Under the pieces are notes generated by a model. The model ran no database searches. It was not told the DNA's origin and was given only the letters and a program-made list of their open reading frames with translations. Source: Dictyostelium discoideum (Eukaryota). From it: a DNA stretch of 64,000 nt. Each line of letters begins with the position of its first letter. Position 1 is the stretch's first letter. Shown piece by piece: positions 45,195-64,000 of this stretch. Location of the stretch: the NCBI GenBank assembly GCA_000004695.1, contig CM000153.2, positions 4,832,001 to 4,896,000 on the forward strand. The letters run 5' to 3'. Made by a program: the position numbers and the translations under genes.

Positions 45195-45248
<54 letters not shown>

Positions 45249-46196
45249 CATGTTGTACAAAATAGACAATCAAGAAGTAATCAATATATTTTAATTAACA
45301 GTCATGATATGTATGATTTCGTATTCAATCCAATTTATGAAAAATTATTAATTGAATCACAAAAAGAAAAAGAAAAAGAAAATGATAATAATAATAATAA
45401 TACCAATAATAATACCAATAATAATAATAATAATAATATTGAAGAATTAAATTCAAATGAAAAATTAGAATTAGATTCAAAATATTTAATTGCAGTGGTA
45501 ATTCAATATATTAAATCATTAAGTTTTAATCATTGTACTGGTATATCGGATAAATTATATAATCTATTGATTAGTTTATTAATTGATAATAATATGTTTT
45601 CAAGATTACATCAATTCTTACAATATTATGTAATCACTGATTCATTATCAATAGCTTATAAACTTTTATCAATTGGTGAACAATATCCACCAGTACTTCA
45701 ATTGTCATTGGATATGTTTAAGAGATTATCAATGCCAAATATTATCATCGAAACTTTATTAGAGAGAGGTCAAGTTATTCAAGCAATTCGTTTATTACGT
45801 TCAACAAAGGAAACTAATGAACAAGCTTATCAAGAGTTGTTGACCCCAACTTATCCAATTCAATTCTTGGCTAGTTCTTCAAATCAGTCCAATGATACTC
45901 TATTCTTTTCAGTGTTTAAATTCTTTGAAACTAATAATTTAATTATACCTTCACATCCATCCTTTGATAAGTATATAAAATTATTCATTGAAAAGTTTAC
46001 TGAAAAATCATTATCACCTCTATTATTAGATATTCTTTCAAATTTAAATAATAATAGTACTAGTGGTGGTGATATAACTCCAAAGAAAAATGTTGGTGGT
46101 AGTTTCTTAAATCAAAGTTTAAATAATTCTTCTCCAACTTTAAGATCTTCAAATTCTTTAAATAGTTCACCTAGACTTCAATATTCTAATAATTAA
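43042..46196 (+). CDS. RMC1/Mic1-like protein (C-terminal Mic1 domain; putative regulator of the MON1-CCZ1 complex), ~955 aa. Exons 43042..43275, 43379..43556 (or ..43588) and 43741..46196.
   Basis: C-terminal 'LHQFLQYYVITDSLSIAYKLLSIGEQYPPVLQLSLDMFKRLSMPNIIIETLLERGQVIQAIRLLR' matches the Mic1-domain pattern. Exon 1 donor GTATGT (43276). Acceptor 'aaaattag'. Exon 3 acceptor 'ttacattcag'. Only the weaker donor GTAAAA at 43557 gives an in-frame transcript (2868 nt). The strong GTAAGT at 43589 is out of phase. Confidence 0.5.
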
Positions 46197-46582
46197 TAAT
46201 TAATTATTTTAATTTTGGTTTTAAAAAAAAAAAAAAATTAAAAAAAAAAAAAAAAAAATTAAAAAACTCTGATCGATTTTATTTTACTCATCTCTAAAAT
46301 ATATAAAAATAAAAAAAATATAAAAAAATATATATATATATATATATAAAAATAAATAGTGTATATCTTTATAACTAAATTAATTTTTTTAGTCTTGGTA
46401 AAATAATTTTAATTTTTTATTATAAAAAAAAAAAAAAATCATTTGAAAAGTACATAAACTTGAATGATTTTTACAATAATAATATTAAAAAAAAAAAAAA
46501 AAAAAAAAGATATCTTATTTATATAACTAAATTAATTAATTTTATAATATTTGTAAATAATTATTTAAATAATTAAAATTTA

Positions 46583-47920
46583 TTATTTTTCAAATGATGA
46601 AGGTATTGGAAAAATTTCATTAAAAGTGATATCGAATAAATATTGAATTTCATCAGTCATTAATTCTATTCCATCATTTAAACATATTGAGTTTATAGTA
46701 AGTCTTAATTGATCAACTTTTTGAAATATTTGTTGAAAATTATCATTATTTAATTGAAGATATAATACATCGGATGTGGTTTTAATTGTACATTTTGAAA
46801 ATTTAATTGCAAATTGGTTATATAAATGTGCCATTTGGAAATCAGTTTTATTTCTAAAGAAATGTGAAGAGGTGATTTCTAAACCTGTGCCGAAATCTTC
46901 TTGCATTTTATACCATATCTTTCTATTGAAAACTTGAATTCCATGAGCTGGGAAATTTCTTTTATACTCTTGTCCATCTCCCCATATTATTGCCAATGCT
47001 CTATTTGTTAATAAAACTCCCATTGTATATTCATCAAATGATTTTGAATTTCCCGATTTTCCACCCAGCACGTCTTTATTAAAAAAAACAACTTGATTAA
47101 AATTTTCATCAAAATAATCACTTTGTTCAACTGGTCTACTTAAAATTATATCATCATTTAAATATAAAAAACAATTTGAAACTTCAATTGGTAAATTCCA
47201 AAAATTTGATTCAATTGAATTTGAATTAAATGATGGTAAATCTGATCTAATAATTTTAAAAAATAATGAAAAAAATAAATATAAAAATGAAAAAAAAAAA
47301 AAAAAATGAAAAATCTATTAATAATTATTCTTTGAAAAATGAAAAAATAAAAATTTAAAAATAAAAAAATTATAAATAATTTACTTTTTATGAAAATAAT
47401 CATCATGTGATATAAATCTAACATTTTCAGGATTTTCTATATTAAACCATGTCGGTATTTGATTTGCAGTAATTATAAAAATATTTTTAATCCATGGTGC
47501 ATATTGTCTAACACTTCTTAATGAATATTTTAATGTACCAATATCTCTAAAATTGGTTGTGGGTGGTGAATAACTAAAATTACCTATTCTTTGTATTTTT
47601 GATTCTTCATGTATTGGATCTGAGCCATTAACCCAAGTATAAACTAAATCTACATATTTACATTCTCTTGACATTATAACTTGTTTAATATTTCTTTCAT
47701 TTTCATTTAAACCAATAGGTTTTGATTTAAAATCATCATATATTTCTTTAGGAAAACTTCTATTACAAAATTTGAAAAAAATAATTAAATAAAAAATAAC
47801 AATTACCAATGTAAATATAATTGATTTTTTTTTATTTAAATTTTTTATCATTTTTTTTTTTTTGAATAAAATAAAATAATATAAAATAAAATAATATAAA
47901 ATAAAATAAAAAAAACCCAA
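46583..47920 (-). CDS. Stealth-family protein (GlcNAc-1-phosphotransferase / capsule phosphotransferase-like), paralogue A, 399 aa. Exons 47920..47385 and 47246..46583.
   Basis: CR1 'VDLVYTWVNGSDP', CR2 'LKYSLRSVRQYAPWIKNIFIITANQIPTWFN', CR3-like 'CFLYLNDDIIL'. N-terminal transmembrane anchor. Donor 'aaaaa|GTAAAT'. Acceptor 'aaaattattag'. 1200 nt, in frame. Confidence 0.75.
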
Positions 47921-48244
47921 AAGACACTAACTCTTGAAATTATTTATTTTTTTTCTTTGTCACTTTTTTAAATACTTTCAGAAAATAAAAAAAATAAAAA
48001 AAATAAAAAAATATATATTTTATAATAAATTGGATCAACCTATATGCTCAGAATGTCAAAAAAAAAAAAAAAAAAAAAAAAAAAAACAAAATAATTATTC
48101 TTTAAATTTCTTATGAAAACCCTGGTTTTTAAAACTAAAAATAAAAAATAAAATAAAAAAAAAAATTAAAAAAATTAAAAAAATTAAAAAAATCAAAATG
48201 CACAAAATAAAAATAGATTCGAACATTGCAAACGTTGTAAATGT

Positions 48245-48295
<51 letters not shown>

Positions 48296-48622
48296 ATTTT
48301 TTTTTTAAACACCAAAAGTGACTTGCACCAATTCCTCTAAAAAATTTTTTTTTTTATTTTTTTATTTTTTATTTTTTCATTTTTAAACCGCCAAAAAAAA
48401 AAAAAAAAAAAAAAAAAAACGAACCTTTTTAAAAAATAAAATAATTGATTTGAGTTGGACAATTTTTGTAAATAATTGTTAATAAACTCTAAACCCTCAT
48501 TTAAATTTAAACATATTGAGTTCATTTTATCTCTTTAATTTTTAAATTCCAATATCTATAAAACCAGGAGGTGGTGTTGGTGAATATTGTCAAACACCAA
48601 TACTGTTTTTTTTTAATTTTAT

Positions 48623-49941
48623 TTATTTTTCAAAATTAGATTTAATTGGGAATAGGAAATTAAAAGTATCATCAGATTTTTTTTGAAGATCATCATTAAT
48701 AAATTCCAAACCATCATTTAAACATATTGAGTTTGTTTCATCTCTGGAATTTTTAAGGATTTCTAATTTTTCATCAAAATTTTCATTATTTAATTGAATA
48801 TATAATACATCATCTGAACCTATAATTGGTTTTGAATATCTTAATGCAAATTGAATATATAAATGTGAGATTTGAAAATCAGTTATATTTCTAAACTTAT
48901 TTGAAGATGTAATTTCTAAACCTGCACCAAATTCTTCTTGCATTTTATACCATATCTTTCTATTGAAAACTTGAATTCCATGAGCTGGTATACTCCTTTT
49001 TCTATCTTGACCCCAAATTGAAGCCAATGCTCTATTTGAAAATAAAATTGCTTTTGAATATTGGTCATATAAATCTAGAAAATAGGCTTTTCTACCCATT
49101 AAATATTCCGTTAAAAAAACGGATTGTCTAAAATTTTTATTTTCATCAAAATAATCACTTTGTTTAACTGGTCTACTAAAAAATATATCATCATTTAAAT
49201 ATAAAAAACAATTTGAAACTTCAATTGGTAAATTCCAAAAATTTGATTCAATTGAATTTGAATTAAATGTTGGTAAATCTGACCTAAAAATTTTAAAAAA
49301 AAAATAAAATTACCATATTAATATTAATTAATTTATTTATAAAATTATTAAAAATTTAATTTAATTTACTTTTTATGAAAATAATCACTATGTGAAATAA
49401 ATCTAACATTTTCAGAATTTTCAATATCGAACCATGTCGGTATTTGATTTGCAGTAATTATAAAAATATTTTTAATCCATGGTGCATATTGTCTAACACT
49501 TCTTAATGAATATTTTAAAGTATTGAGATCTCTAAATGAAGATGGTATATATCTATTTACAGAGATATCATCAGCTTGTAAACTCATTCTAGTTTTCTTA
49601 TGACTATCGATATGTTTTGGATCTGAACCATTTACCCAAGTATATACTAAATCCACATATTCACATTCTCTTGATAATACAATTTGTTTTATTCTTTTTT
49701 CTTTTTCTGTTAATTCTATTGGTTTTGATTGAAAATAATTATAAATTGTATGTTCATCAAAAACTTTATTTTCACCATTAATCGTGTACCCAATTCTATT
49801 AAATAAAACAAATGGAAAATCTATATCTCTTAATTTACAAAATAAGAATGTATTACTTATTATTACTATTATTACAGCTATTAAAAAAACACCTCGTTTC
49901 AGTAGGTATTTTGGTATTCTCTTTGTAGCAGACAGCCTACT

Positions 49942-49988
<47 letters not shown>

Positions 49989-49992
49989 CCAA
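48623..49992 (-). CDS. Stealth-family protein, paralogue B (~411 aa counted from the second ATG at 49944). Exons 49992/49944..49370 and 49283..48623.
   Basis: Same CR1–CR3 motifs as paralogue A: 'VDLVYTWVNGSDP', 'LKYSLRSVRQYAPWIKNIFIITANQIPTWFD', 'CFLYLNDDIFF'. Identical intron position with donor GTAAAT. The first ATG is fused to a poly-A tract encoding K15. Confidence 0.75.
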
Positions 49993-50203
49993 CTTTACAA
50001 TTTAGTTAATTTTCAGTTTAATAAATATAATAAACTATTCAATTATTACTGTTACAATTATTATTACTGTTATTTTTTTTTTTTTGTTTTACCAGAGGAA
50101 AAAAAAAATTAAAAAAATTAAAAAAATTAAAAAAAAAATGTCAACTAAAAATAAAAAATATCTTAAATTTCAAAAAAAACCGATTAACATGAACAATCTA
50201 TTG

Positions 50204-50438: not shown

Positions 50439-50902
50439 TTAAATTTTATTTTTTGCTTCTAAAACGAATTTCTCTTCAAATTTATTCTTTGGTGTCATTG
50501 AGGCAGCAATGGTGTAATATTCATTTGCTTTTTCATATTGTTTTAATTGAGTGTAACAATCAGCGATTGAAACTATACATCTAATTAAAGTTGGATCAAT
50601 TTGATAGGAACTTAAAAAATAATCCAATGCTTCTTGGTATGTTGCATTTGGCACTTTACCAAATAAAGCATTTGCAACACCCCTCTCAATCCAACTTATT
50701 GATGCCACTGAATAACTCCATCTTCCTAATAAAAATAAGGTTATACTATCATTTGGTCGTAAATTTAAAGATTTTAATGCATACTCTTGAATTTTTGGTG
50801 CATTTCCCACTTTTTCTTTTGAACTTAAAAATTCACCTAATCCTGATGTTGAAATTGCCCACCACTTTATTATTTATTAATATTATTAATAATATTTTTT
50901 TT

Positions 50903-50936
<34 letters not shown>

Positions 50937-51209
50937 ACATACTTTATATAAATCAGGATGTTCATTAGTTGGTATGAATTTATTTATTATTTCTAATGAA
51001 GTTTGAATATATTTTAATTTTGTATCTCTATCTTCTTCTAAATCACTTTGATTATAATATGCACGAGCTAATCTCCAATTGATTTCAACATTCTTATTGA
51101 CATTATCTTGGTCCTCTTGTTGATTAATAAATTCAATGATTTCATCATGTTTACATTGGTCATGTAATTTATCTGCTTTATTAATTATTTCTTCCATTGG
51201 TAAAAACAT
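50439..51209 (-). CDS. TPR-like protein of the regulator-of-microtubule-dynamics (RMDN/FAM82) type, 230 aa. Exons 51209..50943 and 50864..50439.
   Basis: Donor 'TATAAA|GTATGT'. Acceptor 'aataataaag'. Product '…EHPDLYKWWAISTSGLGEFLSSKEKVGNAPKIQEYALKSLNLRPNDSITLFLLGRWSYSVASISWIERGVANALFG…'. 693 nt, in frame. Confidence 0.45.
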
Positions 51210-51329: not shown

Positions 51330-51826
51330 AAATATTTTAAAATAAAATAAATTAAAATTTTAATTCTCAATGCTAACACCAAAACTTGACACATTCTGAA
51401 AGTTATATATAACTCTTTTAATCTTTTCTTTTTTTATTTCAAAACACCACACATAATATTTTTTTGATTATTTATTTTTATTTTCATTTTTATTTTTTTT
51501 TTTTTTATTCTCACTTTTGTTTTAATTTTTATTTTATTTTATTTTTATTTTATTTTTATTTTTATTTTTTTTAATAAAAAAGAGGAGGAAAAAAAAAATT
51601 GTTAAACCATGTGATAAATTTTCAGACACATCATACGAACAACACTTAACTATACGCTCTTACTCAAACATATGCATACATGTAGTGTGCCCAATATTTT
51701 TGGTTTTAAAAAAGAGAAATGTTTAAATCCTAAAATAAAATGTATTTTTTATTATTTAATTATTTATTTATTTAATTAATTATTTATTTTTTTATTTGTA
51801 TTTTTTTATTTTTATTTGTTTTATAT

Positions 51827-52270
51827 TTATAAAGCTAACATTGAGAGTAAAGCAAGGGCAAAAAGAGCAAAACTAGCACCAATTCTTGTAGAATCAGAAG
51901 AGTCAGACTCTGAAGAGTTTGTTTTGTCTGGAACACAAACAACTGAGTATGTTGTAGTACCAATTGCAACTTTTGATTTACCATCTACACAAGTAAATTC
52001 ATTTGAAGAAGTAGGAGTTGCAGCACATTTTGTATCTTGAGCACCAAATTGATTAAATGTAAACTTTGAGGTAGAACCAGTTACTGGTAATACATTAAGA
52101 ATTGAACCACAAGCAGATTGGCAAGTATTAACCTTTAATTCAACTGGTGTTGTTACACATGGAGAGCTGGCATCTGAATTTGTAACTTGAAAATTTGAGA
52201 AAGTTTCAGCTGCATTTGAAGAAGCAATAATTGCTACAATTAATAATAATAATGGTTTAGTAAATTTCAT
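51827..52270 (-). CDS. PsA (prespore antigen D19) / ponticulin-like GPI-anchored cell-surface glycoprotein, copy 1 (147 aa)
   Basis: Signal peptide 'MKFTKPLLLLIVAIIASSNA'. Cys pattern C…C…CG…NQFGAQDTKC…FTC…VVC, as in PsA. Ser/Thr-rich linker 'NSSESDSSDS'. Hydrophobic GPI tail 'ASFALFALALLSMLAL'. Confidence 0.7.
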   Translation of the reverse strand: MKFTKPLLLLIVAIIASSNAAETFSNFQVTNSDASSPCVTTPVELKVNTCQSACGSILNVLPVTGSTSKFTFNQFGAQDTKCAATPTSSNEFTCVDGKSKVAIGTTTYSVVCVPDKTNSSESDSSDSTRIGASFALFALALLSMLAL

Positions 52271-53048
52271 TTTGAATTGGTTTATTTTTTTTATGTATTG
52301 GAATTTATATATATATAATTTGTTTTTATATTGATTATAATTTTTTTTTTTTTTATTATTACTATTTTTTTTTTTATTCTCAATTTATACTAAAAAAAAT
52401 TATTTTTATTATTTTTTTTTTAATTTTCAAATATTTAGTATTAACACGTTGGTAAGAAACTTAATTTTTTTTTTCTAAACCATTGTTTTTTAAAAAAAAA
52501 AAAAACCAAGATTTATTTTTGATTTTTACTTGAAAAATGCAAGCAAAGCAATTTTATTTTTTTTTTTTTTTTTTTTTCTTGGAGAAATCTTTGATTGAGA
52601 AATTTACAATGACAAACTTTTTTTGTTATTTGAAAAATAAAATAAGGATTATTATTACTTAAAAAAACAAGAAAATTTATATATTTTTTTTTTTTAAAGA
52701 TAGTTTTACCAGGAGAAAATTTAAAATTAAAATATGGAAACAATAGAATTTTTAATATTGAAATTCGATGCGATTGTAGATAATACTAATTGATTTCATT
52801 TCATTTTTTAAGTTAGAAATTTAGTTAGTTTCCTAATATTATTTTAAATTCCATTTTAAAAATTAAATATTTCTTATGATTAATTATTTAAACTATGCAC
52901 AAAAAAGTTAATTTGTAAATTTAATGTTAGTAATATTTTAGATGATTAGATTTTTTATTTTATAATTTTGAACATATCATAAACGAATGTTAATTTTAAT
53001 GAGAGTGTGGAAAATTAATTTAATTTATTTATTTGTTTTTTTTGTTTT

Positions 53049-53492
53049 TTATATAGCTAACATTGAGAGTAAAACAGAGGCAGCAAGAGCAAAACTAGCA
53101 CCAATTCTGGTAGAATCAGAAGAGTCAGACTCTGAAGAGTTTGTTTTATCTGGAACACAAACAACTGAGTATGTTGTAGTACCAATTGCAACTTTTGATT
53201 TACCATCTACACAAGTGAATTCATTTGAAGAAGTAGGAGTTGCAGCACATTTTGTATCTTGAGCACCAAATTGATTAAATGTAAACTTTGAAGTTGAACC
53301 GGTCACTGGTAATACATTAAGAATTGAACCACAAGCAGATTGGCAAGTATTAACCTTTAATTCAACTGGTGTTGTTACACATGGAGAGTTGGCATCTGAA
53401 TTTGTAACTTGAAAATTTGAGAAAGTTTCAGCTGCGTTTGAAGAAGCAAAAACTGCAACAATTAATAATAATAATGATTTGGTAAATTTCAT
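53049..53492 (-). CDS. PsA/ponticulin-like GPI-anchored protein, copy 2
   Basis: Same 147-aa ORF. Variants: K6S, AVFASS, SDANS, tail 'FALAASVLLSMLAI'. Confidence 0.7.
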   Translation of the reverse strand: MKFTKSLLLLIVAVFASSNAAETFSNFQVTNSDANSPCVTTPVELKVNTCQSACGSILNVLPVTGSTSKFTFNQFGAQDTKCAATPTSSNEFTCVDGKSKVAIGTTTYSVVCVPDKTNSSESDSSDSTRIGASFALAASVLLSMLAI

Positions 53493-53594
53493 TTTTCTAT
53501 TTGATTTTTTTTATTGGGATTTATTTGTATGGTATAATTTGTTTTTTTTTAATTCTTATTTTTTTTAAAATGTTCTATTTATACTCAAAATCAG

Positions 53595-53629
<35 letters not shown>

Positions 53630-54229
53630 TTTTAAATGTTAGGTATTAACACGTTGGTAATAAACTTTTTTTTATTTTTCATCTTGAATTTCAAAAAAAA
53701 AAAAAATCCAAGATTTGTTTTCGATTTTTAATTGAAAAATGCTAGCAAAGCAAATTATTTTAAATTATAAAGAAACTAACAAACTGAATTTTATTTAAAA
53801 GTAGTGTTGAAAATTATATTTCTTATAAAAAAAAATAAAAATTAAAAAAATAAATAATTCGAGATCATTTTTATTAATTATTTTTTTATTTCACTAATAT
53901 TTTTAGTTTTTTTTTTTTTTTATTTTTTTTTATTTAATTATTTATTTAAATTAAATGAGTTTAAATCCCTATTCAACAAGAAAATTAAACTAAAATGAGT
54001 TTTTTAGTTTATATAATAAATAAATTTGAAAAATAATATAGTCACCCATTCCACCAATCATAACCTCGAATATTTACAAACAACATTATCCAGGAATAAA
54101 TCAGATAAAATTTTGAAAGATAATTTAAAAATAACTTTTTATGGAATATTCCATTTTAATAATTGTTAAAACTATGGACATATATTTCACATGATTATAT
54201 ATTTTTTTTTTATTTATTTTATTTGTTTT

Positions 54230-54673
54230 TTATAAAGCTATCATTGAGAGTAAAGCAGCGGCAGCAAGAGCAAAGCTAGCACCAATTCTTGTAGAATCAG
54301 AAGAGTCAGACTCTGAAGAGTTTGTTTTATCTGGAACACAGACGACTGAATATGTTGTACTACCAATTGCAACTTTTGATTTACCATCTACACAAGTGAA
54401 TTCATTTGAAGAAGTAGGAGTTGCAGCACATTTTGTATCTTGAGCACCAAATTGATTAAATGTAAACTTTGAAGTAGAACCAGTTACTGGTAATACATTA
54501 AGAATTGAACCACAAGCAGATTGGCAAGTATTAACCTTTAATTCAACTGGTGTTGTTACACATGGAGAGCTAGCTTCTGAATTTGTAACTTGAAAATTTG
54601 AGAAAGTTTCAGCTGCGTTTGAAGAAGCAAAAACTGCAACAATTAATAATAATAATGATTTAGTAAATTTCAT
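54230..54673 (-). CDS. PsA/ponticulin-like GPI-anchored protein, copy 3
   Basis: Variants: SEASS, GSTTY, tail 'FALAAAALLSMIAL'. Confidence 0.7.
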   Translation of the reverse strand: MKFTKSLLLLIVAVFASSNAAETFSNFQVTNSEASSPCVTTPVELKVNTCQSACGSILNVLPVTGSTSKFTFNQFGAQDTKCAATPTSSNEFTCVDGKSKVAIGSTTYSVVCVPDKTNSSESDSSDSTRIGASFALAAAALLSMIAL

Positions 54674-54973
54674 TTTTGTTTTTGATTTTTTTTATTGGAA
54701 TTTATTAATATGGTATAATTTGTTTTTAAATATATATTTTTTTTTTTTATAATTTTTTTTTTTTTTCAAAGTGTTCTATTTATACTCAAAAAATTTTCAA
54801 TAATTTATTTTATTTTTATTTATTTTTTTTTATTTTCAATTATTTGGTATTAACACGTTGGCAATAAACCTATTTTTATTTTTCATCCAGGATTTTAAAA
54901 AAAAAAAATAAAAACCAAGATTAGTTTTTGATTTTTACTAGAAAAATGCAAGCAAGGCAAATTTTATTTTTTA

Positions 54974-55009
<36 letters not shown>

Positions 55010-55441
55010 CGTGATGAAATCTTTGATTAGGCAAATATAAAATGAGAAACTTTTTATTTTATCTGAAAAACAAAATTAAGACTTTATTACTTGAAAAAAA
55101 CAAAACAGTATTATTTTTAGTTTTTTTTTATTTTTTTTATTTTTTTTTTTTTTTGTTGTAAAAATTAAAATATAATTATACCAAAACCCAAAAAAGGTTT
55201 AAAATTAATTAGATTGTTTTTTAAAATAATATTCCTTTTTAATTTCCTTAAATTGAAATCAAAAAATTTCTTTTTTAAACAGTATAATTTTTTATTATTT
55301 ATTGTTAAAATTGTGAGCGAATTTATAAATTAAATATTTTTTATTTTTTAAGTATGAAAATATTTTTAATTTTATAACTTTTCAAAAGCAAAAAGTAAAA
55401 TGAAATTGTTTTAAATAACTAATAATAATAAAATATATTAT

Positions 55442-55885
55442 TTATAAAGCTAACATTGAGAGTAAAGCAAGGGCAAAAAGAGCAAAGCTAGCACCAATTC
55501 TGGTAGAATCAGAAGAGTCAGACTCTGAAGAGTTTGTTTTATCTGGAACACAAACAACTGAGTATGTTGTACTTCCAATTGCAACTTTTGATTTACCATC
55601 TACACAAGTAAATTCATTTGAAGAAGTAGGAGTTGCAGCACATTTTGTATCTTGAGCACCAAATTGATTAAATGTAAACTTTGAAGTTGAACCGGTCACT
55701 GGTAATACATTAAGAATTGAACCACATGCAGATTGGCAAGTATTAACCTTTAATTCAACTGGTGTTGTTACACATGGAGAGTTGGCATCTGAATTTGTAA
55801 CTTGAAAATTTGAGAAAGTTTCAGCTGCGTTTGAAGAAGCAAAAACTGCAACAATTAATAATAATAATGATTTAGTAAATTTCAT
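55442..55885 (-). CDS. PsA/ponticulin-like GPI-anchored protein, copy 4
   Basis: Variants: AVFASS, SDANS, GSTTY, tail 'FALFALALLSMLAL'. Confidence 0.7.
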   Translation of the reverse strand: MKFTKSLLLLIVAVFASSNAAETFSNFQVTNSDANSPCVTTPVELKVNTCQSACGSILNVLPVTGSTSKFTFNQFGAQDTKCAATPTSSNEFTCVDGKSKVAIGSTTYSVVCVPDKTNSSESDSSDSTRIGASFALFALALLSMLAL

Positions 55886-56131
55886 TTTGTATTTGATTTT
55901 TTTGTTGGAATTTATTTATATGGTATAATTTGTTTTTAAATATATTTTTTTTTATTATTTTTTTTTTTTAAAATGTTTTATTTATACTCAAAAAAATTAT
56001 TTTTTTTTATTTTTCAAATATTTGGTATTAACACGTTGGTAATAAACTTTATTTTACTTTTCATCCTTGATTTCAAAAAAAATAAAAACCAAGATTTGTT
56101 TTCGATTTTTAATTGAAAAATGCAAGCAAAG

Positions 56132-56163
<32 letters not shown>

Positions 56164-56588
56164 CATGATGAAATCTTTGTTTATGCAAGTTTAAAATTAG
56201 AAACTTTTTTATTTTATCTGAAAAACAAAATTAGGACTACTATTACTTGAAATAAAATACCATTTTATTATTTTTTTTTTTAAACATATTTTGGTTGTAG
56301 TAAATTTAAAAATAAAATATATTAAAAAACAAATCAAGGTATAAAATTAATATTATACTATTTTTTAAATAATATTCCGTTTTTTTCCTTAAATTATTAT
56401 CAAAAATTGCTTTTTTTAAATTCGTATAATTTTTTATTATTTATTATCAAAACTGTGAATTTTTCATATTTTTATTTTTTTATAATTTTATAACTTATCA
56501 CAATTTTTCAAAAACAAACTATCCAATGAAATTGTTTTAATTAATTAATCTTAATAAAATATATTATTTTTTTTATTTGTTTTATGTT

Positions 56589-57032
56589 TTATAAAGCTAA
56601 CATTGAGAGTAAAGCAAGGGCAAAAAGGGCAAAGCTAGCACCAATTCTGGTAGAATCAGAAGAGTCAGACTCTGAAGAGTTTGTTTTGTCTGGAACACAA
56701 ACAACTGAGTATGTTGTAGTACCAATTGCAACTTTTGATTTACCATCTACACAAGTGAATTCATTTGAAGAAGTAGGAGTTGCAGCACATTTTGTATCTT
56801 GAGCACCAAATTGATTAAATGTAAACTTTGAGGTAGAACCAGTTACTGGTAATACATTAAGAATTGAATCGCATGCAGATTGGCAAGTATTAACCTTTAA
56901 TTCAACTGGTGTTGTTACACATGGAGAGCTAGCTTCTGAATTTGTAACTTGAAAATTTGAGAAAGTTTCAGCTGCATTTGAAGAAGCAATAATTGCTACA
57001 ATTAATAATAATAAAGAATTATTTAATTTCAT
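56589..57032 (-). CDS. PsA/ponticulin-like GPI-anchored protein, copy 5
   Basis: Variants: MKLNNS…AIIASS, SEASS, 'ACDSILN' (G>D), tail 'FALFALALLSMLAL'. Confidence 0.7.
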   Translation of the reverse strand: MKLNNSLLLLIVAIIASSNAAETFSNFQVTNSEASSPCVTTPVELKVNTCQSACDSILNVLPVTGSTSKFTFNQFGAQDTKCAATPTSSNEFTCVDGKSKVAIGTTTYSVVCVPDKTNSSESDSSDSTRIGASFALFALALLSMLAL

Positions 57033-57567
57033 TTTTGTTTTTTAAAATAATATTTTTTTTTATAATTTTTCTTTTTGATTGGTGCTCTATTTATACTTAA
57101 AATTTTTATTTCTATTTTTTTATTTTTGGTATTGACACGTAGTTGAAGTTTATTTTTATCTCTAAATCCTGGTTTTTTAAAAAAAAAGATTAGTTTTCGA
57201 TTTTTACTTGAAAAATGCTAGCAAGGCAAATTATTTTAAACACGCTTATATTATTTTTTTTTTTCTTTATAATGAAATCTTTGATATGAAAATTATAAGG
57301 AGAAACTTTTTATTTATTTGAAAGTTGTTTTTTTTTCAATTTTACATTTTTATTTTATTAATGGTTTGAGACAATTCACAATTAAAAAACTAATAATAGA
57401 AAAAAAAAAATCCAGCCAAAAAAAAAAAAAACAAATAAAAAGCTACACAAAAAAGATTATTTTTTAAATTATATATTTTATTATAATTTTTTTTTTTTTT
57501 TTTATTCTTTATACATATAAAACTATTAAATGTATAAAAGAGATAATATTATGATTATTTTGGTTTT

Positions 57568-57602
<35 letters not shown>

Positions 57603-57608
57603 AATTAA

Positions 57609-60600
57609 CTAATATTTAATAGAGGAAGAATTTGATAAATTTGGATTATTATCATGGAATTTTTTCAAAGCATGAGATAATTTCATATTTAATAACATGT
57701 TTACATTAGGATCATCGACTGGAATTACTTTAGATTTAACATCGCGATCTAATAAACCAAGATTTTGAGGTGGGTCAAATTCTAAAAGAACACCATCATC
57801 TACCATTTCATTTGATTTAATGAATTTGAAAGGAATTTGGAAGAGGAAAGAACTATGTAAGAAATTCTTTTTAGATTTTGATAAGATAATTCTATGATCA
57901 GAGATGATGATGGTACATTCTTGATTGATGATATGATGCCAAATGTAACTATCAGAAGCATGTTTACCTTTGTGAGCGGTTTTCAAAAGGAACCAACCTT
58001 CACTTTCAACTTCATCGAATGGACGTAAAACGTTATCATGAGAAAAGCATCTTGGAGGACGAACACGTTCTGCTTGACTTTGAAGATTTGTAGTGTTTTT
58101 AATACCTTCGGTTGTTTTAGTTGCTAAATCGATTACGGCGGTAGTTGGTTTAACTGCAACACCTACAACACCTTGAGCTAAACCTTTGGCAAAACCTGCG
58201 AAACCACCTTTCTTTGCACCTTCAACTGGTTTTGTAACGATACCTGTAATACCTTGAAGAATACCACGACCCAAACCAATACCACCCATTGCTAAACCTT
58301 CACCAACATGGGAAGGTTTACGAGCTTGATGTAATTTTCTTTCTTGAAGATATTTTTCATCAAATGAAAGAGTTGCAACACCAGTACCCAAAGTACCGGT
58401 TAACTTTGACAAAGTATTGAAAGTACCAAATACAGAGTTCTTTACAAAACTACTTGTACCTTTTGCTAAACCTTTAGTGAAGTCTGCTGGTGATTTAACT
58501 AAACCTTGAGCTGGCTCTACGAAAAAGTCATGAACACCAGTACCGAAATTTCTAAACAAACCAACAGGATTACCAAGGAAATCGACAGAACCTAAAATGT
58601 TATAAAATTGTCTGAGAGCTTGTTGAATGTATGATGTTTTAATCTTATCAATGATAGTTGATCTTGAAGTGAATGGATGTTCCATTAATAAACCTTGTAA
58701 TGTAATTGGTGCACGATCTAATCTTGTCAATGATAAACCTAAACCTTCAACCAATGATAAAATCTTATGATTGGATTTAATTAAACCATCATTTTGGAGA
58801 GCTAAAGTTAAATTGATCTTTATTGGATTCAAAACTAATAATGCGAAATAAACCATTTTAATTGTTGAAGAATCTGAAGTTGGTGGTTCAATTGAGACAG
58901 CATTATATAGTGTTGATGTTAAACTATCAAGACCACTACCACTTTGTCTCATTTGACTACTTGTCATTCCATTATTATTATTATTATTTGAAGCATTATT
59001 TCCACGACCAAATGATGGAATTGAATCAACGAAATCTAAAACTTCTTTAATCCAATGATCTTCGAGTTCAATTGTCATCTCTTGAATTAAAGTTGAAAAG
59101 TATCTAAAGTAATCAATATTATCAATGGTAGATTTAATGATAACAGCATGTAAAAAGTCTTTTCTATGTTCTTTATCTGGTGAAACTGTATGAATGAGTA
59201 CAGGGAAATCTGTTTTAATCAATTGATTATCAATTTGTAACTCTGCTAATTTAACCTCAACCGTATTTTCAATTGAACTTTGAGTTGCAATGATAAGGAA
59301 ATCTTTCATTGAAATGTAAGCCAATTCCTTTGGTGTCTTATCGATAATTGAACAACCAATACCAGAGCAACGAATATTGAAATGATATTCACTCTGTGAT
59401 TGTGATAAATTGACAGCTTTATTATCGGTCCAAGCTTTAATTGAACGGAATTTCTTTTCATTGGTAGAGAAGAGTAATACACGAGATGGACCATCGATTG
59501 TAATTGTAATGTAGAGATCAGTACGTTCATGTTGAAGTTTATAACCTTTAATCTTATTGACATTGATACGCTTTTTCAATGTTTTACCCTCTACAGCGAC
59601 AGAGAGAACATATTCTGCAGATGGTTCATCCCAACCATAGCAAAGCTTTTCTTTTGGTTCAATATAATCGATATTCTCTGGTGAATCACGTTGGAAGAAT
59701 GAGATTTTGAATTGAGTATCATTTTGAATGATATAAGGTGGACTTTCTTTACTTGAAAGTGGAATTCTAATGAAATGAGTACCTTGTTTCTCTTTGATAT
59801 TCACATGGAATAAGAGAGAATCGTGATCAGGACGTTCGGTATTTCTACTCTTTACAACGTAATCACTAATGGAATCAACAAAGAAACCACCTGACCAACG
59901 CCATTCTTGAGGATTCTTTTCATTGGTAATTGGTCTAATTGAAATCTTTTTATTTTCAACATTCTCTTCCCAATGGAATGGTTTATATTCACCAGGATCT
60001 AATCTTAGTTCACCTAGTAATCTAACAGGATTTGAAACACCTTTACCATTACTACCTGAACTACTACTCAAACCACTACCACTGAAATTGAGTGCCATCT
60101 TATCGATACCATCGATAGTACTAACACATTGAGCAACTAGAATTGGGAATGGTAAATCATTGCAAATTACATTCTTTGGTACAAAAGTGACGGTTTTAGA
60201 GAGACGGAATCTTTCATTTGGACAGAAATCAACTTTGTATGAGAGTTCATAAGTACGAGTTGGGTTTGTTAAAAAGATAGTATTTGGATTACCAACTGCA
60301 GAGATTGGGAATTTCTCACAGAAACTCTTATTCATTGGTTGTTCAGCTTGTAATGGAATACGAGCACGAATTGTGTTGTTACTATAGAGCACTGGTGGTC
60401 GTGGTAATTGATCTGGTAAATTGGGTGGTACCAATAGTACTTGATTATCGGATAACTTGACTTCAATTGGTAAGAGGGAATTATTGACTAACCAATATTG
60501 ACAATAAAATGATAGAGTACGAACGCCTTTAATCAATTCGGTACGTTCAATATCCAATGAAATTTCACGATTGTTTTGTTGAAGTTTGAATGTTTTTGTA

Positions 60601-63600
60601 AAAGTTGGAGAGGTTGCATCACCTGATACCAAGGTATGTTTAGTTTCTGGGAAATTCTCTAATTCACTTACGATCGCCACTAAATTTGAACCTGGTTGAT
60701 AGTAATGACAATCGATTTTCTCACCTGATCCCATGTTAACCTTATCAATGGTTGTACCTGGGATTGAGAGTTTAAATGGATATGGTAAAATGTTTTCAAT
60801 TTGAATGGGTGGGAAGAATTTAAAGGTATTATTGAAACGATCACAATTTCTATTGGCAATGGTTTTATGAACCAATGATACAAACATACCAACTTTATCC
60901 ACTGTTTGAAGTTTAAAGAGTTTACTATTTTCATGATCTGGTAATTTGTAAATATCGATTGGATCGGACCAATATGGTGAATTCTCTAACTTTATCCAAA
61001 ACTTGCAAAGATCCTTTGAGACTAAAATTGGTAAAGAGAATTTAGAATGTTTAGCGATTGAAAAGGGTGAACCATTCTCTTGACATTTCAATTCCAAATT
61101 TAATGATGTATTATTTTCAAATTGATCCATTGATTTAATGTAACAACATTTACTGCCATCAGGACGTAAACGTACTTCACAAGTGATGAATTCATTGGTT
61201 GAACCAATTCTATAGATTCTATAACCAACTGCATCCATTGATAGATTTGAAATCTTTGAGCCTTGAATAAATAATTCTATATTCAAATGTTCACCCATTG
61301 TTGCATCTCTACTCTTTGAAATTTTCATTGGTAATGATACTGGTTCCGATGATTCTGTCAATTGGAACATTTCACTATCAACCTTTGGAATATGATATTC
61401 TAATGTTACACCAGTTTGATTTGAAATCCAATGAGAATGGAATGAAATTTTACTATCATTCTTTTCACCACCTGGTAAATATTTATTTAAAACACTTGGT
61501 CCATTAAATGATTGAACTAAACCGCTACCACTGGTACTACTATTATTACTACCTGTTGAAGTTGTTAAATTTGATGCATTCAATGATGAACTTAAGTTTG
61601 CTGCATCCATTTGATCAATTTTCTCCACATGAATCATTGCACTACTAATAGTTTGAAGTAATGAATGTGAGACATTGATATTTAATAATTCACGAGTTGC
61701 CAAGAAACTACCTTTAATCTTACCGGTACGATTCTTTTTCAAATCGACAGAGAAACTCCAATCTTCAATAACTGGTTCAAATTTCATATTAGTTTCATTG
61801 AAATAATCACCTTTAATTGACATTGAAGCCTTTGATTCTAAATCTGTGCTCCAATTCATTGCACTTGCTTCAATATCTGCAAAGAATAATTCTATAATTG
61901 GTATATACATTTCTGGTGATTCATTAATAAATAAAACACTAACATTTGGACATGAGAATCTTAATTTTTCATTATTTGTAAATAATTCTTCATCTTTTTT
62001 ACCACTATTACTATTACCAGATGTTGAAGTTTGGAATGAATTTGTTGATTTATTTAATGATGGTAATGAAGTTGAACTTGAAGCCATATTATCAAATGAT
62101 AATTGTCTCTTCTTTTGTTGTTCTTGTTGTTTTTGTAGATTTGTTGTAATATTATTTAAAATCTTTAAGATTGCTTTTACATCATCATAAGAGAAGAAAA
62201 CTTTCATAGCGGTACAAGAGATACCAATATCTTGTTTCCACTCGGTTGAAGTTAAATTCTCTTTAATATATTTAATGGTGATCATTTCAATTGGTTTCAA
62301 AATTTGAATTGGTCTTGAACCTTGATTTTCAGATTCTGTTGAAGATGGTTTATAAATGTTAACTTTAGTATTTTCAATGACAACTGTAGCATTTTCAATA
62401 CCATGTGGATCTCTACGGAATTGTACACCAACACGAGTTTTCAACATTAAACATCTTGTAGTTGATAATGTTTCATCTTCAACCAATGTAACTGATGGTA
62501 CTAAAGTTGCTGTGAATGTAATGGTTGGTGATCTAAATATTTCTTTCTCTTCTTCATCTTCCATACCTGCTTCTTGTGGATATGATGATAATGAATTATT
62601 TGATATTGATGATGAAATTGTTTTAGATTCTTTACCACCAATTGATGAAGTTCTACTTCTATTTTGACCAATAATTGATTGTGATCTTACTTTTTGTTGT
62701 TGTTGTTGTTGAGATGGAATAAATGATGATGATGATGATTGTTGTTGTTGTTGTTGAAGATCATTATCATCTTTTTCAATTGATGGATCCATTAATGAAT
62801 TTAATTCACTTTCTAAACTTTCCAAATCTAAATCTAAATCAACATCCATATTATTTGTATCATGTTGTTCTGATAATGGTACCATAAAGAATTCAGAAAT
62901 CATTAAGAGAGGAGTTGGCGAAAGGAATAAACAAGTGTTATTAATATTGACATTAATATATTGATCACCCAAAAGATTATCACGAATATAACCAACTTGA
63001 AGGAATGGTGCAACTGATTCAGTGTTTACTTTATTCTCTAAGAGGTTCTTAAAGATATTGGTTGAATTTGAACGAGTATCAGAGAGTAAAATTGATTTCA
63101 TACTTAATTGAATGTTTGTTTTATTCTTATCGGTATTCTTTACATCGACATCAATGCCACGAACGATGAAATGAGCTATTTCACCTTGAGCATCCAATGA
63201 ACTAATCTTGAAACTAACATAGTCCAATACCAAATGAATACGTAATAAAACTTTACCCATTTTTTGAATAACCTCTTGTTCTGTGAAATATTGCATATCA
63301 TTAGAAGTAATACGACCCATTTCAAAAGGATCACCCATATTTGAAAGTTTTTTAATTTCTTGAACCTCTTTATTTGCAAGATCCAATTCTTTTTGTACAT
63401 TTTGACTTAAACCCAAAAAGAAACGATATTGATTTTCATCCAAATAGAAAGCGAAATGAGAAATTGATAAATCAATAGTTTGATCCTCAACTTCTGGATC
63501 AGTATTTGGTACCAAGAATTTTGAGATACCTAAATCAATTGTTAACTTCTCCAAGAAGTAACTTGATCTATTATCGGATAAAATGGTGATATTTGCATCT

Positions 63601-64000
63601 TGTAAATGAATTTTCATATTTTCCATTGGTGCCATTGTCTTATCATGATATTGCCAACCATTTGAAATAATGATTTTACCCAACTCCATAATTAAAGAAT
63701 TCTTTGATCTAGTTGCTTGTGGTATAACTAAAACTGGTGTTTCAACAACAATATCTAATTTCATCTTTGGTATATGTTTATTTGTATTTTGTTGAAGTGA
63801 TGTTAATAATTTTTTATTCTTTTCAAGATCTAATTCTCTTTCACTCTTTTCATGATTATCATCAGATCTTGGTGTTGATGTTGATGATGATGAAGATTGT
63901 TGTTCATTTAATTTTGAATCAATTGATTTTGATTTTTCAATTGATTTATTATTATTATTGCTATCATCTTGTTTTAAAATTGGATCTAACATACCACCTA
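57609..64000 (-). CDS. VPS13-family lipid-transfer protein, C-terminal 2127+ aa (partial). The ORF is open to the window end and the 5' end lies beyond it.
   Basis: Continuous 6.4-kb ORF. The C-terminal region '…FVEPAQGLVKSPADFTKGLAKGTSSFVKNSVFGTFNTLSKLTGTLGTGVATLSFDEKYLQERKL' is typical of the VPS13/ATG2 C-terminal domains and is followed by a PH-like tail. Size and composition fit VPS13. Confidence 0.7.
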   Translation of the reverse strand, partial: GGMLDPILKQDDSNNNNKSIEKSKSIDSKLNEQQSSSSSTSTPRSDDNHEKSERELDLEKNKKLLTSLQQNTNKHIPKMKLDIVVETPVLVIPQATRSKNSLIMELGKIIISNGWQYHDKTMAPMENMKIHLQDANITILSDNRSSYFLEKLTIDLGISKFLVPNTDPEVEDQTIDLSISHFAFYLDENQYRFFLGLSQNVQKELDLANKEVQEIKKLSNMGDPFEMGRITSNDMQYFTEQEVIQKMGKVLLRIHLVLDYVSFKISSLDAQGEIAHFIVRGIDVDVKNTDKNKTNIQLSMKSILLSDTRSNSTNIFKNLLENKVNTESVAPFLQVGYIRDNLLGDQYINVNINNTCLFLSPTPLLMISEFFMVPLSEQHDTNNMDVDLDLDLESLESELNSLMDPSIEKDDNDLQQQQQQSSSSSFIPSQQQQQQKVRSQSIIGQNRSRTSSIGGKESKTISSSISNNSLSSYPQEAGMEDEEEKEIFRSPTITFTATLVPSVTLVEDETLSTTRCLMLKTRVGVQFRRDPHGIENATVVIENTKVNIYKPSSTESENQGSRPIQILKPIEMITIKYIKENLTSTEWKQDIGISCTAMKVFFSYDDVKAILKILNNITTNLQKQQEQQKKRQLSFDNMASSSTSLPSLNKSTNSFQTSTSGNSNSGKKDEELFTNNEKLRFSCPNVSVLFINESPEMYIPIIELFFADIEASAMNWSTDLESKASMSIKGDYFNETNMKFEPVIEDWSFSVDLKKNRTGKIKGSFLATRELLNINVSHSLLQTISSAMIHVEKIDQMDAANLSSSLNASNLTTSTGSNNSSTSGSGLVQSFNGPSVLNKYLPGGEKNDSKISFHSHWISNQTGVTLEYHIPKVDSEMFQLTESSEPVSLPMKISKSRDATMGEHLNIELFIQGSKISNLSMDAVGYRIYRIGSTNEFITCEVRLRPDGSKCCYIKSMDQFENNTSLNLELKCQENGSPFSIAKHSKFSLPILVSKDLCKFWIKLENSPYWSDPIDIYKLPDHENSKLFKLQTVDKVGMFVSLVHKTIANRNCDRFNNTFKFFPPIQIENILPYPFKLSIPGTTIDKVNMGSGEKIDCHYYQPGSNLVAIVSELENFPETKHTLVSGDATSPTFTKTFKLQQNNREISLDIERTELIKGVRTLSFYCQYWLVNNSLLPIEVKLSDNQVLLVPPNLPDQLPRPPVLYSNNTIRARIPLQAEQPMNKSFCEKFPISAVGNPNTIFLTNPTRTYELSYKVDFCPNERFRLSKTVTFVPKNVICNDLPFPILVAQCVSTIDGIDKMALNFSGSGLSSSSGSNGKGVSNPVRLLGELRLDPGEYKPFHWEENVENKKISIRPITNEKNPQEWRWSGGFFVDSISDYVVKSRNTERPDHDSLLFHVNIKEKQGTHFIRIPLSSKESPPYIIQNDTQFKISFFQRDSPENIDYIEPKEKLCYGWDEPSAEYVLSVAVEGKTLKKRINVNKIKGYKLQHERTDLYITITIDGPSRVLLFSTNEKKFRSIKAWTDNKAVNLSQSQSEYHFNIRCSGIGCSIIDKTPKELAYISMKDFLIIATQSSIENTVEVKLAELQIDNQLIKTDFPVLIHTVSPDKEHRKDFLHAVIIKSTIDNIDYFRYFSTLIQEMTIELEDHWIKEVLDFVDSIPSFGRGNNASNNNNNNGMTSSQMRQSGSGLDSLTSTLYNAVSIEPPTSDSSTIKMVYFALLVLNPIKINLTLALQNDGLIKSNHKILSLVEGLGLSLTRLDRAPITLQGLLMEHPFTSRSTIIDKIKTSYIQQALRQFYNILGSVDFLGNPVGLFRNFGTGVHDFFVEPAQGLVKSPADFTKGLAKGTSSFVKNSVFGTFNTLSKLTGTLGTGVATLSFDEKYLQERKLHQARKPSHVGEGLAMGGIGLGRGILQGITGIVTKPVEGAKKGGFAGFAKGLAQGVVGVAVKPTTAVIDLATKTTEGIKNTTNLQSQAERVRPPRCFSHDNVLRPFDEVESEGWFLLKTAHKGKHASDSYIWHHIINQECTIIISDHRIILSKSKKNFLHSSFLFQIPFKFIKSNEMVDDGVLLEFDPPQNLGLLDRDVKSKVIPVDDPNVNMLLNMKLSHALKKFHDNNPNLSNSSSIKY

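Follow-up and report, generated by a model that had tools for sequence, protein, structure and literature searches.

Organization of the ponC locus

The window analysed here is a 64,000-nucleotide stretch of Dictyostelium discoideum AX4 DNA (contig CM000153.2), and the element under study is a tandem array of five ponC genes (ponC1 to ponC5), which the protein records place on AX4 chromosome 4 and which very probably evolves in concert by gene conversion and unequal crossing-over. The window is extremely AT-rich (17–34% G+C in 2-kb bins) and carries, between 51.8 and 57.1 kb, five tandem open reading frames (ORFs) of 147 codons on the minus strand, with start-to-start distances of 1147–1222 bp. 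An exact-sequence look-up identified the five ORFs with the AX4 proteins PONC1-5_DICDI, named Ponticulin-like protein C1–C5 in UniProt, in agreement with the label "ponticulin-like" proposed in an earlier sequence-only reading of this DNA. A tblastn search of the window returned exactly five ponC copies and no additional pseudogene. We lettered the copies a to e in the direction of transcription, from ponC5 on the side of a VPS13-family gene to ponC2 on the side of an RMD1-3/TPR-like gene. The genes and their boundaries are as follows:

57609..64000, minus strand: 3' part of the VPS13-family gene, the upstream boundary (Pfam VPS13_M, VPS13_VAB and VPS13_C)
56589..57032, minus strand: copy a, ponC5 (DDB_G0286723, PONC5_DICDI), the first gene past VPS13
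55442..55885, minus strand: copy b, ponC3 (DDB_G0286721), ORF with exact protein match
54230..54673, minus strand: copy c, ponC4 (DDB_G0286719), ORF with exact protein match
53049..53492, minus strand: copy d, ponC1 (DDB_G0286717), ORF with exact protein match
51827..52270, minus strand: copy e, ponC2 (DDB_G0286715), the final gene of the array, ORF with exact protein match
50439..51209, minus strand: RMD1-3/TPR-like gene, the downstream boundary, assigned from its ORFs, the PF21033 annotation of its orthologues and synteny in other arrays

The VPS13 neighbour is a single-copy gene with conserved synteny at each of the seven arrays compared, and served as a yardstick for synonymous divergence (dS, substitutions per synonymous site).

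Two further features overlap the genes themselves. A 91-aa ORF opposite ponC1 (52987-53262, plus strand) corresponds to the ponC coding sequence (CDS) read in antisense and bears no gene-like sign. A hairpin resembling a terminator, CAGACTCTGAAGAGTTTG followed by a run of Ts, occurs once per copy on the plus strand (51904-51921, 53126-53143, 54307-54324, 55519-55536 and 56666-56683); it is the antisense of the stretch encoding the Ser/Asp-rich linker and recurs because the CDS itself is repeated. Its interpretation as a terminator of bacterial type was rejected, a scan for bacterial promoters and terminators being irrelevant for a eukaryote.

Mosaic variation among the five AX4 copies

The five AX4 CDS are 93.7–97.3% identical in pairwise comparison and vary at 37 nucleotide and 15 amino-acid positions, which fall into roughly six blocks; the figure of about six differing sites given by the sequence-only reading was thus too low. 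Amino-acid replacements are mostly found in the N-terminal leader (residues 3–6, 14 and 15) and in the C-terminal hydrophobic tail (residues 137–147), and between leader and tail the copies differ solely at residues 33, 35, 55 and 105. The shuffled variants described in that reading, in its own numbering of the copies, were recovered in the translations: AII in copies 1 and 5 and AVF in copies 2–4; SDASS in copy 1, SDANS in copies 2 and 4 and SEASS in copies 3 and 5; GTTTY in copies 1, 2 and 5 and GSTTY in copies 3 and 4; and the tail variant FALFALALLSMLAL in copies 1, 4 and 5.

The proposal that no single duplication order explains this distribution was borne out at the nucleotide level. The 20 parsimony-informative sites define nine distinct bipartitions, of which a five-taxon tree allows only two, and the best tree, ((b,d),c,(a,e)), accounts for 10 of the 20 sites. 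In the four-gamete test, which had been suggested as a check, 92 of 190 site pairs were incompatible, ruling out a tree-like nesting of the differences, and the Hudson-Kaplan minimum number of recombination events (Rm) was 8. None of 3000 simulations of recurrent mutation on the best tree, which allowed for AT and transition bias and for rate heterogeneity up to a strong level, attained nine splits or 92 incompatible pairs (maxima 7 and 54; means 2.3–3.2 and 3–8). Pairwise differences were moreover clustered in blocks, as indicated by Sawyer's permutation test on the sum of squared condensed fragments (SSCF; P=0.0002 in AX4, and P=0.0024 in the FIR isolate introduced below).

Individual patches can be followed along the genes. 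The non-adjacent copies b and d have a private block in common at nt 104, 189, 192 and 198, and the CDS of copy b is b-like at its 5' end and c-like at nt 400–416. Copy e alternates between copy-a-type and generic segments, switching at least seven times. Copy a differs from the other copies at its 5' end (MKLNNS) and in its upstream region; this 5' end is common to copy a of two other isolates, FIR and FIW, and to the array of D. cf. discoideum, and the CDS of copy a beyond it groups with AX4 copy e.

Copy number, spacer order and a chimeric gene among isolates

AX2-214 and wild isolates of D. discoideum were sequenced with long reads in a previous study (PMC12745789), the source of the FIR (GCA_054859385.1) and FIW (GCA_054859355.1) genomes from which we fetched the ponC loci. 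The array has five copies in AX4, five in FIR and four in FIW, in line with the sequence-only reading, which had called for long-read resequencing of isolates to establish copy number. The five AX4 proteins also recur, in array order and under the consecutive accessions KAM9941865-69, on a second contig that probably belongs to the long-read AX2-214 genome (PMC12745789). The isolates are modestly diverged: the VPS13 CDS differs by 1.5% between AX4 and FIR (dS 0.060), and dS is 0.026 between FIR and FIW.

The spacers between the AX4 genes, each comprising the 3' flank of one copy and the promoter of the next, were assigned to FIR as follows:

55886..56588, minus strand: spacer a-b, orthologue of spacer a-b in both other isolates
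54674..55441, minus strand: spacer b-c, orthologue of FIR spacer c-d, position swapped relative to FIR
53493..54229, minus strand: spacer c-d, orthologue of FIR spacer b-c, position swapped relative to FIR
52271..53048, minus strand: spacer d-e (3' flank of d and promoter of e), orthologue of FIR spacer d-e, not homogenised

When 330 bp on either side of each gene were compared, promoters and 3' flanks paired one to one among the three D. discoideum isolates with 81–92% identity, and the paralogous 3' flanks within AX4 were only 48–74% identical and essentially unalignable. Since one-to-one orthologues exist for every promoter and 3' flank, the ponC copies predate the isolates. The pairing of AX4 with FIR is not collinear, spacers b-c and c-d standing in swapped order. 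The promoter of AX4 copy b is orthologous to that of FIR b and its 3' flank to that of FIR c; copy c combines the promoter of FIR d (92%) with the 3' flank of FIR b (85%), and copy d the promoter of FIR c (89%) with the 3' flank of FIR d (87%). BLAST alignments extending over gene, spacer and gene confirm the swap (window 54986-53048 against 9711-11616 of the FIR locus, L001, at 88.9%; window 56143-54205 against L001 10901-12796 at 89.2%). Polarising the swap with D. cf. discoideum, where spacer orthology is ambiguous, gave no ancestral order. The names ponC1 to ponC5 are positional and do not denote orthologues across isolates.

The FIW array, one unit shorter than those of AX4 and FIR, contains a chimeric gene. 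Its copy c has promoter c and a c-type CDS up to about nt 372, followed by d-type sequence from about nt 381 and by the 3' flank of d, just as an unequal crossover with its breakpoint in the CDS should yield.

The coding sequences follow a course of their own. Positional orthologues of AX4 and FIR differ at 18–34 of 444 nt, and some AX4 paralogues at only 12–14 nt; the mean p-distance is 4.3% within AX4 and 6.0% between AX4 and the FIR and FIW copies, a weaker effect than that seen between species. At nt 143, 253 and 256 (N48S, T85A and P86S) all five AX4 copies differ from all nine FIR and FIW copies, and these three array-wide fixed differences are all nonsynonymous and located in the mature protein. 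In windows of 50 columns, the identity of paralogues (0.95–0.99) equals or exceeds that of orthologues (0.93–0.96) only from about position -10 to the stop codon, and beyond the CDS it is the orthologues that resemble each other more, by a wide margin.

The spacers (52271-57608) have a G+C content of 14–15% and contain A or T homopolymer runs of up to about 30 nt, whose lengths vary among paralogues and isolates and are the source of most gaps in the promoter alignments.

Homogenisation within the arrays of related species

A ponC array lies between VPS13 and an RMD1-like gene in every one of the seven genomes compared, which comprise the three isolates and four further species:

D. cf. discoideum: five copies at the VPS13/RMD1 locus
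D. citrinum: three copies at the VPS13/RMD1 locus
D. firmibasis: seven copies at the VPS13/RMD1 locus, including an inverted block
D. dimigraforme: four copies at the VPS13/RMD1 locus

The array of every species was monophyletic in 200 of 200 neighbour-joining bootstraps, with mean p-distances of 1.6–5.1% within arrays and 11.8–23.6% between species, and many species-specific residues and indels were common to all copies of a species. Synonymous sites followed the same pattern: ponC dS was 0.045–0.109 between paralogues and 0.25–0.76 between species, with VPS13 dS of 0.10–0.47 between the array-bearing genomes (0.42–0.47 between AX4 and the two most distant species). Because synonymous sites are homogenised too, purifying selection alone cannot explain the similarity of the copies. 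Here again the CDS stand apart from their surroundings, being 95–98% identical between paralogues in the other species, with 3' flanks of 24–75% identity. Spacer orthology is weak outside D. discoideum and D. cf. discoideum.

Some members of these arrays are structurally unusual. The VPS13-proximal copy of D. cf. discoideum (L003 5130-5552) encodes only 140 aa, part of the hydrophobic tail at the C-terminus being deleted, and sits on a long branch of the tree; it may be decaying or its product may be without a membrane anchor. In D. firmibasis (L005 7003-15259) five of the seven ponC-like genes form a block oriented opposite to the VPS13-proximal and most distal copies, which points to inversion of a portion of the array. 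A second D. citrinum assembly (ACTFIU_003253-003256; P0020, P0021 and P0026) encodes ponC-like proteins shortened to 140 and 137 aa by internal deletions, together with a divergent 165-aa member that, judged by locus-tag numbering, lies nearby; array content therefore varies within the citrinum clade.

A conserved promoter module

Three boxes are present upstream of all five AX4 genes, namely a GC-containing TTTGCTTTGCTTGCATTTTTCAA box (-198 to -288), a CCAACGTGTTAATAC box (-111 to -188) and a TATA box, the last in the form GAGTATAAATAGAACA in four copies and more divergent in copy e. The modules are located as follows:

57129..57230, minus strand: module of copy a, TTTGCCTTGCTAGCATTTTTCAA ... 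ACTACGTGTCAATAC (variant ACGT box)
56025..56135, minus strand: module of copy b, TTTGCTTTGCTTGCATTTTTCAA ... CCAACGTGTTAATAC
54847..54961, minus strand: module of copy c
53643..53754, minus strand: module of copy d
52438..52552, minus strand: module of copy e

The sequence-only reading had described a conserved 5' block with the motif AACACGTTGG, of which CCAACGTGTTAATAC is the reverse complement. The motif is exact upstream of four copies (52443, 53648, 54852 and 56030), and the VPS13-proximal copy a carries the variant ACTACGTGTCAATAC. That the block is conserved was upheld, and its boxes are recognisable as far as D. citrinum, though mostly not in D. dimigraforme or D. firmibasis. The further claim that it is maintained as well as the genes was mistaken, since the 102-115-bp module is 81–92% identical among copies b–e and 71–73% identical between copy a and the others, as against 93.7–97.3% for the CDS (paralogue means of 85% and about 96%, respectively). 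Identity to the FIR orthologue reaches 90–95% (93% for the module of copy a). Because orthologous modules thus exceed the paralogue mean, the module is kept by descent and selection and not by homogenisation of the CDS. Its conservation plausibly reflects selection on regulation. In cln5- cells the five ponC genes all rank with the most strongly upregulated (PMC9686302), which supports co-expression, although reads can hardly be assigned to single copies.

The PonC proteins and their family

The PonC proteins share a layout of a hydrophobic N-terminal leader (LLLLIVA...SSNA), a Cys-containing beta core, a Ser/Asp-rich linker and a hydrophobic C-terminus (FALFALALLSMLAL). The AlphaFold2 model has an all-beta core at residues 22–118, with a predicted local distance difference test (pLDDT) score of 74–90, and renders both hydrophobic ends as low-confidence helices. 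Comparison of this model with the PDB gave no meaningful structural neighbour, and a Pfam scan of the ponC proteins matched no family. For ponticulin, a cleaved N-terminal signal peptide and a C-terminal glycosyl anchor have been described (PMC2290967). By analogy with it and from their own layout, the ponC products are probably small secreted ponticulin-like glycoproteins with a predicted signal peptide and a predicted glycosylphosphatidylinositol (GPI) anchor.

A ponC profile searched against 1.8 billion representative sequences retrieved dictyostelid proteins only. One of them, P0029 (E=1.9e-8), has as its nearest AX4 relative DDB_G0282423 (35% BLASTP identity over the full length, E=8e-16), which is named Ponticulin-like protein; since that relative carries this name only, we rejected P0029 as ponticulin itself. 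Another, P0031 of D. cf. discoideum (167 aa, with a Pro/Thr repeat and a hydrophobic tail; E=9.8e-6), is named hypothetical protein in its source and may resemble PsA (prespore antigen), the other relative named in the sequence-only reading. With the ponticulin-like family, whose founding member is ponticulin (ponA), ponC shares its UniProt names (PONC1-5), the similarity to P0029 and its AX4 relative, and the layout described above; ponA was not among the named hits.

PonC has been reported to exceed all other proteins in abundance on secreted multilamellar bodies; the peptides detected there could not separate the five copies, and actin binding was assumed by analogy only (PMC4920372). The ponC1 gene served as a marker in quantitative reverse transcription PCR (qRT-PCR) in a study of responses to bacteria (PMC7078664), under the label K7, which apparently refers to the Klebsiella response. 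Because the differences between copies lie mostly in the signal peptide, which would be cleaved, and in the anchor signal, the five genes would yield a nearly identical mature protein, a circumstance that we consider compatible with a dosage role.

Concerted evolution of the array

The excess of mosaic variants, the differences in copy number and spacer order, the FIW chimera, the homogenised synonymous sites, the array-wide substitutions and the confinement of homogenisation to the CDS are direct observations, and we hold with high confidence that they reflect concerted evolution of ponC1–ponC5 through gene conversion together with unequal crossing-over, an ordinary and well-supported mechanism that the sequence-only reading had also proposed. 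Conversion would operate among the homologous coding segments of about 470 bp, between any two copies, adjacent or not, and would frequently overwrite patches of tens to about 150 nt, turning old differences between paralogues into a mosaic and carrying new substitutions into all copies. Occasional unequal crossovers with breakpoints within the CDS would change copy number and re-link promoters with 3' flanks. The AT-rich spacers are presumably too divergent to pair, so that exchange would end at the borders of the CDS and the spacers would retain their own orthologous history. Promoter boxes would be retained by descent and purifying selection rather than by homogenisation. We infer that most patches stem from conversion rather than from many successive crossovers.

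Several observations weigh against this account or limit its reach. A permutation test on adjacent sites in the manner of the pairwise homoplasy index (PHI) was not significant for the five AX4 copies alone (P=0.36) and became so for all 14 copies of the three D. discoideum isolates (P<0.01), from which it follows that the blocks are very short or that the test was underpowered. The AX4 copies formed a clade against the other two isolates in only 16 of 200 bootstraps, and 19 sites are polymorphic among paralogues in both the AX4 and the FIR/FIW lineages; homogenisation is therefore slow relative to isolate divergence. The exchange called "ongoing" in the sequence-only reading is shown to be so on the time scale of that divergence (VPS13 dS 0.026–0.06). 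An excess of G+C at third codon positions (GC3), a sign of GC-biased conversion, was not seen, GC3 being 0.11–0.135 in ponC and 0.19 in VPS13. Finally, for the more distant species conversion is not wholly distinguishable from turnover through duplication and loss.

Whole-unit unequal crossing-over, acting without short-tract conversion, would also produce arrays of five, five and four copies in the isolates and of three to seven between species, a c/d chimera such as that of FIW and a swap of spacers such as that between AX4 and FIR. We nevertheless regard it as an unlikely sole cause. Exchange of whole units should have homogenised the spacers along with the genes, yet 3' flanks are 48–74% identical in AX4 and 24–75% identical in the other species next to CDS of 95–98%; it would have to accommodate at least eight exchange points within 444 nt, with at least seven switches in copy e; and it would need a long chain of compensating gains and losses that left four distinct orthologous spacers intact.

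It is very improbable that each lineage recently amplified its array independently, by birth and death under purifying selection and with no exchange between copies. Monophyletic species arrays and variable copy numbers would be expected from lineage-specific duplication as well, and the weakness of spacer orthology past D. discoideum and D. cf. discoideum is in keeping with it. Among the D. discoideum isolates, however, the spacers of one genome do not form a clade, contrary to what this account would lead one to expect: flanks are one-to-one orthologues, yet array-wide differences are fixed in the CDS, where some paralogous pairs differ less than orthologous pairs do. Copy a repeats this conflict within one gene, its private 5' end and upstream region being kept across D. 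discoideum and D. cf. discoideum and the remaining CDS following its own array. Nor does birth and death account for the homogenised synonymous sites, and a duplication tree cannot yield nine splits.

A simple duplication tree along which a few hypermutable positions underwent recurrent or parallel point mutation has a negligible claim: the non-significant PHI-like result for AX4 and the many variable third codon positions in an AT-biased genome speak for it, but no simulation matched the data, the SSCF test revealed block clustering, and point mutation can make neither a chimeric gene nor a change in copy number. An assembly artefact that multiplied one gene or a few into five copies, a possibility raised in the earlier reading and a common hazard of near-identical tandem repeats in AT-rich genomes, can be set aside, as each copy has unique flanking spacers, the same five proteins recur in the same order on a second contig, and independent long-read assemblies of other isolates and species have three to seven copies at the locus.

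Beyond concerted evolution as such, conversion might spread advantageous variants of a surface protein through all copies, alongside positive selection. This adaptive version is speculative and in our estimation rather improbable; it draws on a dN/dS ratio (nonsynonymous to synonymous divergence) between species of about 0.4 for ponC, compared with about 0.08 for the neighbouring VPS13, on the three fixed replacements, on the abundance of PonC on multilamellar bodies and on the use of ponC1 as a marker of the response to bacteria. Polymorphisms in the mature region are mostly synonymous, unlike the three fixed differences; a Fisher test of the McDonald-Kreitman type (fixed or polymorphic against nonsynonymous or synonymous) was not significant and is suggestive only, with P=0.24 overall and P=0.053 when confined to the mature region.

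Conversion limited to the CDS is known from other small tandem arrays, such as the Drosophila hsp70 pairs, the primate alpha- and gamma-globin duplicates and the polyubiquitin repeats. As in ponC, paralogues in these textbook arrays are closer than orthologues, including at synonymous sites, and carry mosaic variants, homogenisation ends near the borders of the CDS, flanks keep their orthology and copy number changes occasionally by crossing-over. The ponC array differs from them in comprising five genes with spacers of about 85% A+T in a haploid, mostly asexual amoeba, in the slowness of its homogenisation (19 old polymorphisms persist) and in showing no signal of GC-biased conversion.

A second comparison is offered by the tgrB1/tgrC1 locus, a hypermutable recombination hotspot with intralocus recombination, duplication and inversion among surface-protein paralogues (PMC12745789). 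Like ponC it consists of cell-surface paralogues, and it was studied in the same long-read genomes; inversion, too, has its counterpart in the D. firmibasis ponC block. The outcome is different, with diversification and extreme polymorphism at tgrB1/tgrC1 and homogenised genes for near-identical mature proteins at ponC.

Our literature searches, which covered one searchable library, found no paper on gene conversion or concerted evolution of ponC. Because the genes were already annotated and the mechanism is a textbook one, current understanding is not overturned, and the value of ponC lies rather in its being a compact and well-behaved example, with five copies, about 470 bp of homology in each and unique spacers that label the copies. 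Its natural copy gain and loss, chimera, spacer permutation and fixed substitutions make it usable as a natural reporter of ectopic recombination, with which rates and tract lengths in Dictyostelium could be compared between mitotic growth and macrocyst meiosis. In practical terms, calls on individual ponC genes from RNA sequencing, quantitative PCR or proteomics are unreliable, and the published ponC1 primers sit in homogenised CDS (PMC7078664). The most interesting point is whether selection rides on homogenisation; were the adaptive version true, the array would offer a natural record of how recombination and selection act in a haploid amoeba that is mostly clonal.

Neighbouring features

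In D. cf. discoideum, a 169-aa ORF on the opposite strand (L003 10825-11401) lies between the last ponC gene and the RMD1-like gene; it matches Urocanase (PF01175) and has no counterpart in AX4, FIR or FIW. Beyond the RMD1-like gene, a tandem pair of paralogous genes with Stealth CR1-CR4 domains occupies window positions 45100-50180 on the minus strand (L001 15819-19012 in FIR). Its members, 415 and 376 aa long in other assemblies, are about 79–81% identical in DNA sequence and thus form a much more diverged pair than the ponC genes.

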